The notes below the pieces were generated by a model that was given only the letters and a program-made list of their open reading frames with translations, searched no databases and was not told the DNA's origin. A stretch of 34,162 nucleotides of DNA, taken from positions 1 through 34,162 of IMG/VR virus record IMGVR_UViG_3300049782_000084; one strand, 5' to 3'. The position numbers were made by a program, and so were the translations under genes. Source of the DNA: a virus (Duplodnaviria > Caudoviricetes). Below, piece by piece: positions 22,621 through 29,543 of the stretch (positions are counted from its first letter, which is position 1; each line of letters begins with the position of its first letter).

Positions 22621-22899
22621 TCAGAACGGCGCCTCTCCGCTGCCGAGGATGCGGATGACGAAGGGGTTCCCGCTGTTGATGGTCCAGTCCGACCTGTCGG
22701 GTCGGATGAACTCGCCGGGTCGGCCGCCGACGAGGAGATGGCCGTCGTCGACGTTCAGCAGCACCGGCACGAGGGACTGGTCGTGGAACGTCAGGGTTCC
22801 GCGCCATGTCCCGGACGAGTCCTTCGTCAGGTCGGCTTCAGTGTCGAACTGGCGGCCGTCGTCGATGAGGAGGACAGCCGCCCCCTTGTACGTGGTCAT
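22621..22899 (-). CDS. Small beta-rich hypothetical protein (DUF4873-like), moron
   Basis: Y.G.A.L....V.A.L....WRG.L...G.GEAPF pattern; -10 TACCGT 6 nt before ATG. Confidence 0.7.
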   Translation of the reverse strand: MTTYKGAAVLLIDDGRQFDTEADLTKDSSGTWRGTLTFHDQSLVPVLLNVDDGHLLVGGRPGEFIRPDRSDWTINSGNPFVIRILGSGEAPF

Positions 22900-22980
22900 G
22901 ACCCGACGGTAGCGGTGCCGTCAAGCCGCCCGAGCACGAGCCTCGTTGGGGCCATCGACTCTCGATAACATGCCATATCC

Positions 22981-23010
22981 GGGCCCCGCTCCCACCGAGG
23001 AGCGGGGCCC
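22981..23010. terminator. Terminator hairpin
   Basis: GGGCCCCGCTCC-CACCGA-GGAGCGGGGCCC 12-bp perfect stem. Confidence 0.75.
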
Positions 23011-23048
23011 TTCGTCATGCCCGGAAGTGCTGGCGATCACTCAACTCT

Positions 23049-23076
23049 ATGGTTGATAATGACAGTTATCCCATAC
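23049..23076. other. dif/lox-like tyrosine recombinase core site
   Basis: ATGGTTGATAA-TGACAG-TTATCCCATAC (11-6-11); AT-rich island in high-GC DNA upstream of recombinase operon. Confidence 0.65.
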
Positions 23077-23092
23077 AAGGAGGAGGACGGGA

Positions 23093-23335
23093 ATGCTGGG
23101 ACTGCGAGCACGGTGTAAGCGAGCCCTCAGGAGGCAGGCGGAGAGAGTCGCGAGTGAGCTGGATGCATTCCGCCCCAAGGAAGGAGTGCGCCACTCGATC
23201 CAGACGCCTCCCGTTGAAGACCTACCGCGCGTGTTGCAAGACTTGCGTGCACGTCTGGAGCGAGAGCGCGCCCTCTACGGCGACATCAATCTCGGAGCCC
23301 GAGCAGAACGACGTCCCTGGGAGCGACGTCCATGA
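23093..23335 (+). CDS. Hypothetical protein (80 aa)
   Basis: Strong AGGAGGAGG RBS; stop overlaps recombinase start (ATGA). Confidence 0.65.
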   Translation: MLGLRARCKRALRRQAERVASELDAFRPKEGVRHSIQTPPVEDLPRVLQDLRARLERERALYGDINLGARAERRPWERRP

Positions 23336-24369
23336 CGGATGTCACCCTCGTCCCCCGCCCGTCGGCGGAGCTGTCGACCGACCGGCACGACCCCCGCGAC
23401 GACTGGCCCGACGAAGCCCGCCAGCTCGCCGACCACCTCACAGCCATCTACGGCGACCGCGACCCGCTCCCCACCATCGCCGGAGGATGGATCGCCCGCC
23501 AGAAAAGCCGCCACACCCGGCGGGCCTACGTGCGCACCTTCAAGGCGTGGGAGGAGTACGCCCGCTCCACCGGCATCCACCCGCTCCAGGCGAAGCTGCC
23601 ACTCGCCGACGCCTACGCCAAGCACCTCGCCAAGACACCGACCCGCAACGGCAAGCCCCCCGCCGAGACCACCCAGGCGCAAGCCCTCGCCGCCGCCGGG
23701 AGCTTCTACACCTACGCAGCCCGCCTCCAAGCCGTCGACACCGACCCGTTCGCCGCCGTCAACCGGCCCTACGTCGACCCCGACTACTCACCCACCGAAG
23801 GCCTCACCGAAGCCGAGATGGACCGGCTCATCGAGACCGCTCGCGACTGGGCGCCCCGCTCCTACGCCCTCGTGACGATGCTGTACCTGACCGGCGCCCG
23901 CGTGGAAGAGGTCCTTGCCCGCGACATCAGCGATCTCGGATACGACAAGGGGCACCGCACACTCAACCTCACCAAGAAGGGCGGCAAGCGCAAGCGAGAC
24001 CCGCTGCCGCCGCTCGCCCTCGACGCACTCCTCGCCTACCTCGGCGACCGCACCGAAGGCCCCCTCTTCACCACCGAGAGCGGCCGCCGCTGGACCCAGC
24101 CCGAAGTGTGGAAGCACCTCCGCGTCCTCGCCCGACGGGCCGGCATCCCACAAGCCGCCAGCATCAAGCCCCACACGCTGCGGCACCAGTTCATCACCGA
24201 CAATCTCGCCAACGGCGTCCCCCTCCAAGACGTCCAGGACGCCGTCTCCCACTCCGACCCGCGCACCACCCAGCGCTACAACCGCCGCCGCCGCCAGCTC
24301 GACAACCACCCCGCCTACGCCCTCGCCGCCCGGCTCGGTGCAAGGCTGCAATCCCAGGAGGCCGAATGA
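23332..24369 (+). CDS. XerC/D-like tyrosine recombinase (resolvase type)
   Basis: S.HTRRAY SAM-like domain, TGARVEE, KKGGK, PHTLRH, SHSDPRTTQRY; no arm-binding domain evident. Confidence 0.93.
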   Translation: MTDVTLVPRPSAELSTDRHDPRDDWPDEARQLADHLTAIYGDRDPLPTIAGGWIARQKSRHTRRAYVRTFKAWEEYARSTGIHPLQAKLPLADAYAKHLAKTPTRNGKPPAETTQAQALAAAGSFYTYAARLQAVDTDPFAAVNRPYVDPDYSPTEGLTEAEMDRLIETARDWAPRSYALVTMLYLTGARVEEVLARDISDLGYDKGHRTLNLTKKGGKRKRDPLPPLALDALLAYLGDRTEGPLFTTESGRRWTQPEVWKHLRVLARRAGIPQAASIKPHTLRHQFITDNLANGVPLQDVQDAVSHSDPRTTQRYNRRRRQLDNHPAYALAARLGARLQSQEAE

Positions 24370-24521
24370 GCGACGAGCCATCCAAGGACTGGATGGAGAT
24401 CTGGTACGAGACCGGCGAGATCACCTGGCAGAAGCCGCTCTCGCCAGAGGCTAAGGCGCGGATTCTCCACCTCTACGACGAGCTGCTCGAGGAACAGGGC
24501 AGGAACGAAGCCGATGAGTAG
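24366..24521 (+). CDS. Small acidic hypothetical protein (51 aa)
   Basis: AGGAGG RBS, ATGA overlap with recombinase stop. Confidence 0.65.
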   Translation: MSDEPSKDWMEIWYETGEITWQKPLSPEAKARILHLYDELLEEQGRNEADE

Positions 24522-24595
24522 AAGCCCCGCCGTGCCACACTGGCCGCACGCCCGTCAGGCCCCCCGTCCTGGCGGGCTTCCGTTCGGGAGGGTGC

Positions 24596-27011: not shown

Positions 27012-27620
27012 CTACAACCGAATCAACCACCGATCCATCGGCAAGATCAGATCAGCAGTCTCCAGGGAGCGGCCGTGATCATCGAGGCGAGTGCGCACCA
27101 CGCGATACGCCACGGTATCCACCAGCAACCCCAGCGCATGAGCCTGCTCAGCCGTGAGCTCTACACACCCCAGCTCCGCCGTATAGGAAGCATGCGGACG
27201 GCGCTGGCCATGCCACCACGACGACACCAGCATCGCCGACCGGCCGCCCGGATCCATGCACTCCACCGTCTCGTGCCGCAGCATCGCGCCCACCTCGACG
27301 CCAAGCCGCTCCGCAAGCTCCACGGTGGCCGGGCGCGGTCGGGTGTCGGTGGTCTCGCTGGACCACGGCCACTCGGCGTCCGCATCGGTGAGAGTGCGCA
27401 TAGCAGGAGGATGCGCCACATAAACCGCCCTGCGCTCCTCACCCTCCAGAACTCCGGTACGGCGCAGTAGCACGTAGGCAAGACGCACAGTCTGAGGGTG
27501 CACGCCGAGTTCGGCAGCCAGCTCGGCCCTCGATGGCAAGGCCTCCCCAGGCCGCCACTCGCCGGCAGCGATACGGCGCCGGATGTCAGCGGCGATGCGC
27601 CGAAAGCGCGCTTCTGACAT
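27012..27620 (-). CDS. GntR-family regulator with degenerate UTRA-like C-terminal domain
   Basis: IAADIRRRI..GEW.PGE.LPSR.ELA.E.GV...TVR.A; C-terminal A.RLGV..G, RV.RT..D..GR..E. Confidence 0.88.
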   Translation of the reverse strand: MSEARFRRIAADIRRRIAAGEWRPGEALPSRAELAAELGVHPQTVRLAYVLLRRTGVLEGEERRAVYVAHPPAMRTLTDADAEWPWSSETTDTRPRPATVELAERLGVEVGAMLRHETVECMDPGGRSAMLVSSWWHGQRRPHASYTAELGCVELTAEQAHALGLLVDTVAYRVVRTRLDDHGRSLETADLILPMDRWLIRL

Positions 27621-27677
27621 CCAGACCCCTGCCGTCGATCATGGCGTGAGGTCTGAAGCTACGAAGTCGCTTGGGCG

Positions 27678-27691
27678 CTGGATATATCCAG
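27678..27691. promoter_or_regulatory. Perfect 14-bp palindrome CTGGATATATCCAG upstream of GntR gene
   Basis: Direct reading; about 17 bp upstream of a minus-strand TAGCTT -10 candidate at 27656-27661. Confidence 0.55.
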
Positions 27692-27729
27692 GCGGGGCGA
27701 GGGATGCTTGGCAACTGAAGAAGGAAGGT

Positions 27730-27968
27730 TTCGGCACCCCGGAGTTCAGGTCCCCGGTGGGGTCGAAGGGCTCACCTACGGCTTCGTACCCCCTTGGCCG
27801 GACGGTGCAGCCCGCTCGGGTACCCGGCAACTCGAACCGGGTATCCACCCGAACGGGTGAACCATTTTTCGGCACGGCGAAGCGGGTCGCTCGTTACGCA
27901 GAGAGCCGGAGCCGGAGTCGGTCCCACTACCCCCAAGGTGTGCAAGACGACTCCGGCTCCGGTTTTTC
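27730..27968 (+). ncRNA. Candidate structured non-coding RNA
   Basis: Consecutive and nested stems at 27730-27767 and 27811-27857, ending in a terminator; no convincing ORF. Confidence 0.35.
27906..27968 (+). terminator. Intrinsic terminator
   Basis: CCGGAGCCGGAGTCG-N27-CGACTCCGGCTCCGG followed by TTTTT. Confidence 0.75.
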
Positions 27969-28006
27969 TATTACGCCTCACCGGCGGCCGGTTGCTCAGC
28001 TCGAAC

Positions 28007-28248
28007 GGGAATTGGGAAACGAATGGGAGATGATCTCCGGGAGGGGCTGCTAGGTTCCGCTAATTTCTGCGAACTTCTGCTTTGCTCCCGTCGGCCTCTC
28101 CCAGCTCAAGGTGCTGGTCTGCAGGTCACGGGCTCGAGCCTCACATCGTCAGCAGCATGGCCAGCATCCCGATGGAGAACCTTCGGAAATCCGCCTCACC
28201 TGGGAAGACAGGGCACCAGATCACCCTTATGGGAGACTACTGGGAAAC
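28007..28248. other. attP: arm-type TGGGA(A/G)A repeats flanking a core at ~28141-28174
   Basis: TGGGAAAC 28013, TGGGAGA 28024, TGGGAAGA 28201, TGGGAGAC 28230, TGGGAAAC 28241; immediately downstream of integrase. Confidence 0.7.
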
Positions 28249-29543
28249 GGCGGTGACCACCAGACGCCCATTTCCCAGAACGCCTCCCACCGAGCCTGCA
28301 GCGTCTCTGCGATCCGGCGCTCCATTGGAGGCGTCAGGTTCGAGTACAGGCCCTCCACGCCGGCTACCTCGTGCCCCATCCGGGTCTCCATCGCGATGCG
28401 CGCATGACCGTCTTCCTCCAGCCACTCTCGATGCCCGTGGCGCAACAGATAGATCCGCTTGCCGGACATCTCCTGGACGGGAGGAATCGCCTGCCGCAGA
28501 TGGTCGCGCCGCGCAGAACGCTGCGGAGATCCACCCCGGATGTAGGGCCAGTACGCCTTCCCCCACTGGGTGCCCATCTGGCTTCCGCCCAGCGCGGGAA
28601 AGACCCACGGAGAGTCATGCGACGCCAGCAAGGCGGCATGCATCTCATGCAAGAAAGGCGGCACAACCAAGGTGCGGTGGGAGTCGTACTTCGGGCCCAC
28701 CTGCGTCCGCTTCCCGCGCTCGTACTGCGACTGGTACTGAACACGCAGGGCCGGCATGACGTCGGGCCCGTACCGCTCCAGCATGCTCTCCCGGCGCTCG
28801 GGGTCAGGGTCACTCGCCGGCCAGGTCGGGGAGGCGAACTCCCGACGGAGCCCCCACATCTCCCCGGGCGGGCGCATGCCCGTGAACGCGAGCGTCCAGA
28901 TGTAGGTCCAGCCGGTGAAGCCCCACACGTGGTAGGCGTTGCACGCCAGCGCATGCAGCACGGCCATCTGCATGGGCCGCTTGATCTCGCGCTTCTGCTT
29001 GCTGTACCGGCCGCGGCGCTGCTGCCGGATGACGGGCGACTCGCTCCGCAGCTTGTACTTGACCACGGCGTCGGTCATCAGCATCCCGAAGAGACCGGTG
29101 AGCTGATCGGCGTAGTGGTGGGAGAGCTCTTCACGGGCGACTGCGGCCTGCAGGCTCTTCTTCCACGCCTCGTACTCCCAGGTAGTGATCTCGCCGACCG
29201 CCCGGTCGCCCCAGTAGGGGATGATCCTCGACCGCAGCCGGCTCCGGTAGCGCGTGATGGACGTGTCGCGAAGATCCTGGGCCTCGAGCCACATCCAGCA
29301 GTAGTCGCGCATGAGCGTCTTAGCGCTGGCGCGGGGGATGTGGGTGCCGTGCCGGACCTCGTGCTCGCGGTCGAGCCCGTAGTTGTAGGCCTCGTCCTCG
29401 CTGTCGAAGGGGATGCCCGGCTCCGGGCCGCTCGCGGACTCGTACCTCTTGCGCCGGGTCGCCCGGCCTTCGCTGTCGAGGTGGTACTCGCCGCCCCACC
29501 ACTTCACACGGATGCTGCCGCCGCGGACCTCAACGTAGGGCAT
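28227..29543 (-). CDS. int: Tyrosine integrase
   Basis: N-terminal arm-binding-like beta domain, TGMRP, PKY.S.R, YLLRH, RMGH, LYS catalytic set. Confidence 0.93.
   Translation of the reverse strand: MPYVEVRGGSIRVKWWGGEYHLDSEGRATRRKRYESASGPEPGIPFDSEDEAYNYGLDREHEVRHGTHIPRASAKTLMRDYCWMWLEAQDLRDTSITRYRSRLRSRIIPYWGDRAVGEITTWEYEAWKKSLQAAVAREELSHHYADQLTGLFGMLMTDAVVKYKLRSESPVIRQQRRGRYSKQKREIKRPMQMAVLHALACNAYHVWGFTGWTYIWTLAFTGMRPPGEMWGLRREFASPTWPASDPDPERRESMLERYGPDVMPALRVQYQSQYERGKRTQVGPKYDSHRTLVVPPFLHEMHAALLASHDSPWVFPALGGSQMGTQWGKAYWPYIRGGSPQRSARRDHLRQAIPPVQEMSGKRIYLLRHGHREWLEEDGHARIAMETRMGHEVAGVEGLYSNLTPPMERRIAETLQARWEAFWEMGVWWSPPFPSSLP

Follow-up and report, generated by a model that had tools for sequence, protein, structure and literature searches.

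We propose that the 345-aa Xer-like tyrosine recombinase of this phage, together with the dif-like site lying upstream of it (site A), is probably a self-contained multimer resolvase, which would monomerise circular multimers or collapse tandem copies. A first-pass annotation had already put the locus forward as a self-contained module of a recombinase and its cognate site; we arrive at the same view, with resolution as the most likely activity, from the co-occurrence of the site with the gene and the co-variation of site type with protein clade. The module sits in a slot that follows the lysis genes and precedes the integrase, where small recombinases of unrelated families appear to have displaced one another. 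It is this displacement pattern in one slot that is new, the enzyme class itself being familiar; in the full-text literature outside subscription journals that we searched, we found no description of such a slot in integrating Streptomyces phages.

The window (the whole stretch of DNA analysed, 34,162 nucleotides) holds part (34 kb) of the genome of a tailed phage that is rich in G+C and has a virion gene order, and whose relatives are nearly all Streptomyces prophages and plasmids. Going by the translations for the head and tail labels, it appears to run from a terminase-like gene through head and tail genes, lysis genes (~19.9-22.4 kb), the recombinase module and regulators to a leftward integrase. 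The three-ORF operon coupled by ATGA overlaps lies exactly where it was first described, as do the two motifs ahead of it, namely ATGGTTGATAA-TGACAG-TTATCCCATAC at 23049-23076 and, 91 bp earlier, GATAA-CATGCC-ATATC at 22964-22979. With at most one mismatch allowed, GATAA-N6-TTATC has just these two matches in the 34 kb, against a shuffle mean of 0.06, and 1 of 100 shuffles reached two; the region 22669-23600 is further covered by an assembled contig of a second sequencing run with zero differences. The TC(G/A)ACTCT prefix reported as common to both motifs is indeed present before each, but its sharing looks coincidental, since CAACTC is conserved to the left of A while the bases left of CTCTC vary among the copies of B. 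Left of site B, at 22621-22899 on the minus strand, lies an apparently leaderless 92-aa gene that recurs in this position in relatives with any slot enzyme (25 matches). The features of the module and the separate integrase are as follows:

22959..22985, plus strand: site B, an orphan lox/mrpS-type site with a decayed right arm, found in 74 viral contigs and identical to SCP2 mrpS at 21 of 36 positions
22981..23010, no strand assigned: G+C-rich hairpin (~-30 kcal/mol on either strand), a likely terminator, overlapping the right end of B
23015..23048, plus strand: conserved leader left of A, with CAA at -14..-12 in 47-50 of 51 loci
23049..23076, plus strand: site A, dif-like with 11-6-11 architecture, the putative target of the 345-aa recombinase, present upstream of 84 of 92 homologues
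23093..23335, plus strand: 80-aa ORF at a hypervariable cargo position, with no homologue in 308 loci or the protein database
23332..24369, plus strand: Xer-like tyrosine recombinase, 345 aa (PF02899 and PF00589; best PDB match XerD 1a0p, E 2e-17)
24366..24521, plus strand: 51-aa gene 3' of the recombinase and not specific to it, with homologues in 7 distinct records
24550..24577, plus strand: hairpin 3' of the three-gene operon, a possible terminator judging by its fold
28227..29543, minus strand: the tyrosine integrase proper of the phage (438 aa), distinct from the module (weak Pfam match; a family member lies at a tRNA-Val att repeat in prophage genome G002)

The 345-aa protein combines a SAM-like and a catalytic domain (Pfam) and belongs to the tyrosine recombinase superfamily, its PF00589 match lying above the cut-off and its lambda-Int-type domain displaying the complete R-K-HxxR-H/W-Y set (R190, K216, H281, R284, H307 and Y316). 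Five of these residues are invariant in all 80 aligned relatives and R284 is kept in 57 of the 80; in the other 23, which are distant homologues mostly from plasmid-type clades, the HxxR arginine is a lysine (HVLKH, HGVKG etc.). The scores fall far short of the cut-offs of the narrower families: 110-112 bits against 330-335 for XerC/XerD, 33.7 against 267 for XerS (NCBIfam), 114 against 220 for XerA and 61 against 265 for the integron integrase. The PDB matches include XerD, XerA and XerH, with XerD as the closest likeness and Cre absent among them. We rejected orthology with MrpA, the match amounting to 26% over 176 aa in one patch (E 0.008) and not to the full length. Relatives on Streptomyces plasmids share 41-47% identity; all five that were inspected are circular, three of them show such a site in the fetched flank, and further relatives reside on phage-plasmids. 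These comparisons draw on 98 fetched loci of homologues, 92 of which passed E 1e-5, and on a quick IQ-TREE phylogeny of 80 proteins from which 12 fragments or duplicates had been excluded; the recombinase counts were taken from six-frame HMM searches, because the gene caller sometimes picked antisense shadow ORFs.

Comparison of the upstream regions of the homologues, as had been suggested at the outset, shows that the dif-like motif is conserved: ATAA-N6-TTAT precedes 84 of the 92, at distances of ~40 to 2700 bp, and the remaining eight comprise four without upstream DNA, two gene fragments and two real misses (L032 and L075). In the reverse search, 26 of the 35 viral contigs bearing site A have the recombinase gene at most 5 kb away; two of the remaining nine end within 140 bp, and seven are low-GC core-only matches. 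Further, four clades in the 80-protein tree correspond to four site types that differ in their arms and spacers, and the segment aligned to the XerD recognition helix varies together with the site type among the four. Site A is hence the likely cognate site of the 345-aa recombinase. Its core is near-invariant in 51 loci, which were chosen by that core, and its spacer is TGACAG in 48 and TGCCAG in 3 of them; the selection pattern fixed the spacer, but the same spacers are seen unselected among the homologue loci. In keeping with the action of a single enzyme, the arms in the sister clades form almost perfect palindromes; the outer arms of the window clade are poorly symmetric, and this could mean a partner protein. 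GATAA-N6-TTATC occurs once in each of four prophage-bearing genomes and three times in a fifth. Among the joints listed from the sequencing contigs (37 more exist), none lies inside the spacer of A, contigs being blind to rare products.

The position of site A also makes autoregulation through it plausible. The -10 box of the operon may coincide in part with the right end of the site, where -10-like columns show A in 46 and T in 29 of the 51 loci, and the conserved leader to the left of the site might supply an accessory sequence or the -35 element of a leftward promoter. Column conservation is the sole basis of these promoter assignments; a sigma-70 promoter scan found no promoter.

Site B had been taken for a second, degenerate site of the 345-aa recombinase, an assignment that we revise, for it belongs to an MrpA-like family. 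In the 74 viral contigs that carry it, the next recombinase is a member of the main MrpA-like clade in 44 and the window's recombinase in nine; five have another or a partial MrpA-like gene, six a small serine resolvase, five another serine type and one another Xer-like gene, and no recombinase was seen in four. The 44 contigs share an arrangement of B, variable cargo and then a ~339-aa MrpA-like tyrosine recombinase, which aligns with SCP2 MrpA at 33% identity over 321 aa (E 1e-24); together with the 21 of 36 positions that B shares with mrpS, this protein homology makes B and its partner family members of the MrpA/mrpS group. The circular record pZL12 likewise has an MrpA-like relative (41%) with a B-like site, in the form GATAA-N6-ATATC. 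The right arm of B carries, of 11 positions, 0.3 mismatches where the main MrpA-like clade follows, 2.6 where Xer-A follows, 1.7 before small serine enzymes and 4.0 before the other serine type. In L046, L058 and L150, the first 38-42 codons of an MrpA-like gene remain between B and a newer module. Given the association with the partner family, the decay of the right arm and these truncated genes, the window's copy of B is best read as a relic of an MrpA-like module that would have held the slot earlier in the lineage. The truncated genes (L046:5422-5532, L058:5547-5660 and L150:5955-6077) all break at codon 38-42 with different modules after them, and this common break point may reflect a shared event or a hot spot.

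We rejected B as a host dif site, as it is present in 1 of 61 genomes, and there beside a prophage module. Hairpins similar to that at 22981..23010, which a simple terminator scan missed, follow B ahead of Xer, serine and other MrpA-like modules. To the right of B in L173, L174, L197, L198 and L284 is a ~280-aa serine recombinase type after the palindrome ACATCTATG-N-CATAGATGT, which overlaps a leaderless promoter-like sequence; in L044, L144 and L236, the recombinase module lies in the opposite orientation to the lysis genes and site B.

The two small ORFs had been offered as accessory factors, a role that their distribution does not support: the 44 ORFs called in the first slot behind A in 44 loci fall into 33 families, and the homologues of the 51-aa gene follow the window's family (three), MrpA-like recombinases (two) and another Xer subfamily (one) or lie near a serine resolvase (one). 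Both would instead be exchangeable passengers. The cargo genes start ~10-45 nt after A with their own RBS and mostly end at the recombinase start; the genes downstream of the recombinase and those behind B are equally variable, and members of these families are also encoded at other places in the genomes. Although a good RBS precedes the 80-aa ORF, its GC3 of just 0.62 and its want of a homologue make it the least certain gene. Phage-encoded Ku genes (L050:8089-9000 and others, cluster 62) also turn up in the variable region that follows the slot.

A census of the slot was anchored on the holin-like gene, using the best 80 of its 246 matches and loci with at least 4.5 kb downstream, with relatedness uncorrected. 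In this sample (best 80 of 246), a small recombinase occupies the slot in 54 of 69 loci, which by the first recombinase met are 27 MrpA-like, 16 serine and 11 Xer-like; the figure is 52 of 67 when two near-duplicates are dropped and 36 of 42 among loci with a full 10 kb downstream. Again among the best 80 of 246 and uncorrected for relatedness, two kinds occur together in 1 of 67 loci against 11.1 expected (0 of 20,000 permutations), and 15 of 67 have no slot enzyme against 26 expected. A Pfam scan of 53 larger ORFs from the slot-negative loci returned the main integrases and no other recombinase. The serine-type slot enzymes carry the Pfam Resolvase domain, and most of the tyrosine subfamilies are preceded by a palindromic site of their own. 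Where orphan sites are stacked, C comes first, then B and then A or D. Of 50 close relatives, 23 retain orphan B and 16 retain orphan C, some of these copies without mismatch, and shuffled controls yielded none; no two sites of one type were found in any of 309 partly redundant loci, and the flanks switch abruptly at the edges of A and B. The orphan sites and truncated genes thus appear to form a record of slot replacements.

Several further observations concern this slot. A second Xer-like subfamily, in L215, L229, L236, L243 and L290, has the palindromic site C, GCGCATAA-CGTTCCC-TTATGCGC, upstream, its 7-bp centre being unusual for Xer-like enzymes; orphan copies of C are found at L012:5636, L050:4785 and L241:13211, and also inverted just 3' of other recombinase genes. 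Additional MrpA-like subfamilies, each with a distinct palindromic site, are found in L220, L242, L246, L249, L250, L256, L262, L276 and L288. One 88-kb record (L002/L155/L289) contains two phage lysis regions ~70 kb apart, with an MrpA-like module in one and an Xer-like module in the other. In L036, L095 and L096, an EndoVII-like gene behind the MrpA-like gene ends in the last ~25 codons of the Xer-like protein, which is no more than suggestive of a C-terminal scar. A phage FtsK/SpoIIIE gene (TraB-like, ~700 aa, e.g., L320:4048-6123) is encoded in 17 of 50 phage records; its split between slot-positive records (16 of 42) and slot-negative ones (1 of 8) does not amount to a clear link. As for the main integrase, a slot enzyme is present in 13 of 14 loci with a tyrosine integrase and in 0 of 4 with a serine integrase; we claim no link with integrase type, given that an Xer-like gene is paired with a serine integrase in L074, L084 and L087.

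That the phage has an integrase besides the 345-aa recombinase was recognised correctly in the first-pass annotation: it lies at 28227-29543 on the minus strand, adjoined at its 3' end by a gene-poor gap (27620-28227) that is likely the attP region. The fetched flanks of the 345-aa recombinase family likewise contain a separate tyrosine integrase in 13 cases and a serine integrase in three. Prophage ends were examined in three genomes (G001, G002 and G003), and in two the att repeats lie at the other integrase: the 65-kb prophage of G002 is delimited by a 43-bp tRNA-Val repeat, next to which lies an integrase from the same family as the window's, with A 6.5 kb inside, and the 66-kb prophage of G003 ends in a 20-bp repeat beside another integrase, with A 4.9 kb inside. 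Hence A, being internal, differs from the attL/attR ends made by a lambda-type integrase; nor does the module resemble an IMEX, as it has its own recombinase and the host has no copy of the site. The clade's site A was found in 3 of 401 Streptomyces genomes, and we rejected it as a host (chromosomal dif) site on that count. The second integration route through A that had been envisaged is contradicted by the same rarity and by the internal position, and a partitioned form of the suggested plasmid-like state finds no support, given that ParA was found in none of the 46 slot phage records, compared with 3 of 4 from the phage-plasmid clade. Twenty-six of 42 slot-positive records are classed as proviruses.

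Briefly, we advance the following mechanism. The 345-aa enzyme alone would bind both arms of A, as a homomer and without accessory proteins, and recombine two directly repeated copies of A in the direction of resolution. In this way the non-integrated, circular genome of the phage, when present as dimers or multimers, would be split into single units, as would prophage copies in tandem, and we infer a stage of the life cycle at which this would matter. The operon would be autoregulated through the overlap of A with its promoter; B would have been left by an earlier MrpA-like module, with the 80-aa and 51-aa ORFs riding along. A shared resolution function is suggested by the slot enzymes being interchangeable and mutually exclusive and by their known relatives being resolvases, the alternatives to the Xer-like enzyme being themselves of resolvase type, that is, MrpA-like (33% to SCP2 MrpA) or possessing the Pfam Resolvase domain.

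Several observations count against this proposal. One is the strict conservation of the spacer, which self-resolution does not require. Spacers fixed within clades would suit an enzyme whose main role is recombination between elements, joining an incoming phage to a resident prophage or plasmid with the same site; cointegrates or arm swaps would then result, and orphan sites would have been retained as places where enzymes acting in trans can dock. The abrupt flank changes at the edges of A and B would also fit such exchange, as would the orphan copies of B (23/50) and C (16/50) in close relatives, some free of mismatches. We nevertheless consider it unlikely to be the main role, in that two same-type sites occur in 0 of the 309 (partly redundant) loci, GATAA-N6-TTATC is present just once in each of the four prophage-bearing genomes, decay is seen in orphan B (2.6 mismatches of 11, against 0.3) and serine resolvases fill the same slot; serine resolvases are usually limited to sites in one molecule. 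Another is that 15 of 67 loci (from the best 80 of 246 matches) have no detected slot enzyme. This, together with the truncated genes and the placement of cargo with its own RBS directly behind A, might be expected of a largely neutral or selfish passenger, an autoregulated operon derived from plasmids or phage-plasmid ancestors and kept for a promoter that drives the cargo. Such a passenger is less likely still, given that the catalytic residues are invariant across the 80 proteins (five of them, with R284 in 57/80), that the loss of one enzyme is usually made good by an unrelated enzyme and that the kinds are almost mutually exclusive.

The cargo itself, with 33 families in 44 first-slot positions, starts close behind A and ends mostly at the recombinase start, could bring to mind an integron-like capture and shuffling of small genes at A. 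We regard this as highly improbable, for the distal end of the cargo shows neither a repeated site nor a remnant of one, variation is equal downstream of the recombinase and behind B, and the same families occur elsewhere in the genomes; with no same-type site pair in 309 loci and an integrase score of 61 against 265, the locus is not an integron. An equally faint prospect is that A serves as a second attP for the host chromosome, or for a P1 Cre-like circularisation of the infecting DNA. In PMC5559632 and PMC4982277, the second tyrosine integrases of Gordonia phages are read as possible integration systems, but here the site is found in 3/401 Streptomyces genomes, tail or lysis genes lie to the left of A in 43 of 48 loci, the att repeats are at the other integrase, 4.9-6.5 kb from A, in two of three prophages, and A is 23 kb from the terminase genes. 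The resolvase proposal is itself weakened by the fact that symmetric single-enzyme systems also make multimers, MrpA/mrpS having been used to multimerise a plasmid according to PMC4685060.

Integrating phages are not expected to need a resolvase, and the usual reason for one is missing here, as these phages integrate and lack ParA. That about three-quarters of the relatives sampled have one, with several unrelated families as sources and two kinds hardly ever together, points to an undescribed step in the life cycle of Streptomyces phages. Tentatively, and as a possibility rather than a probability, many integrating Streptomyces phages might have an unrecognised extrachromosomal stage, in which the circular genome replicates without partition and spreads through the multi-chromosome mycelium before integration, in some cases with an FtsK/TraB-like translocase. 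The need for monomerisation would then have led to the recruitment of any resolvase family to the one slot, and the second 'integrases' known from Gordonia and Arthrobacter phages would be enzymes of the same kind, which offers a testable reading of these unexplained genes of actinobacteriophages. On general grounds, unregulated exchange between sister copies would be harmless on a linear Streptomyces chromosome, and this may explain why the modules are tolerated. The natural recombinase-site pairs, with their differing arms and spacers, are also candidate orthogonal Cre-like tools in Streptomyces, and the stacked orphan sites offer a readable record of gene displacement.

Among known systems, XerS/difSL, XerA/dif and XerH/difH appear similar to the window module in having the Xer fold, one enzyme and a dif-like site with a 6-bp spacer near the gene, as judged here by co-occurrence; XerS/difSL is presented as a single-recombinase Xer system in PMC2965235. 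Unlike these, modules of the window type reside on phages and plasmids rather than chromosomes, and the enzyme scores far below the family cut-offs. The second 'tyrosine integrases' of Arthrobacter and Gordonia phages (e.g., Cole gp34 and Bowser gp37) share up to 36% identity with the window enzyme and, in all four records inspected, lie in the same orientation and place, a short way ahead of a second tyrosine integrase; a scan of these four records picked up no comparable palindromic site upstream. Those of Gordonia phages are noted but left unexplained in the accessible text of PMC5559632 and PMC4982277. Cre/loxP of P1 and the resolvases of plasmid prophages are similarly phage-encoded resolution modules, if our reading of the window module from its sequence is right. 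Xer-like recombinases alternate with small serine ones among related plasmid prophages of Bacillus, and such tyrosine recombinases are believed to resolve dimers, as stated in PMC8026635. P1 and these plasmid prophages, however, persist as plasmids with partition genes, whereas the slot phages integrate and lack ParA. MrpA/mrpS of SCP2* is likewise a single tyrosine recombinase with a site just upstream of its own gene and likely the same job. This system of the Streptomyces plasmid SCP2* was reportedly assigned a resolvase role by Warth et al. in 2011. Site B and its partner family are its true relatives (33% protein and 21/36 site identity), while the window enzyme is related to MrpA at the superfamily level only, is paired with a dif-like ATAA-N6-TTAT site and is carried by an integrating phage.
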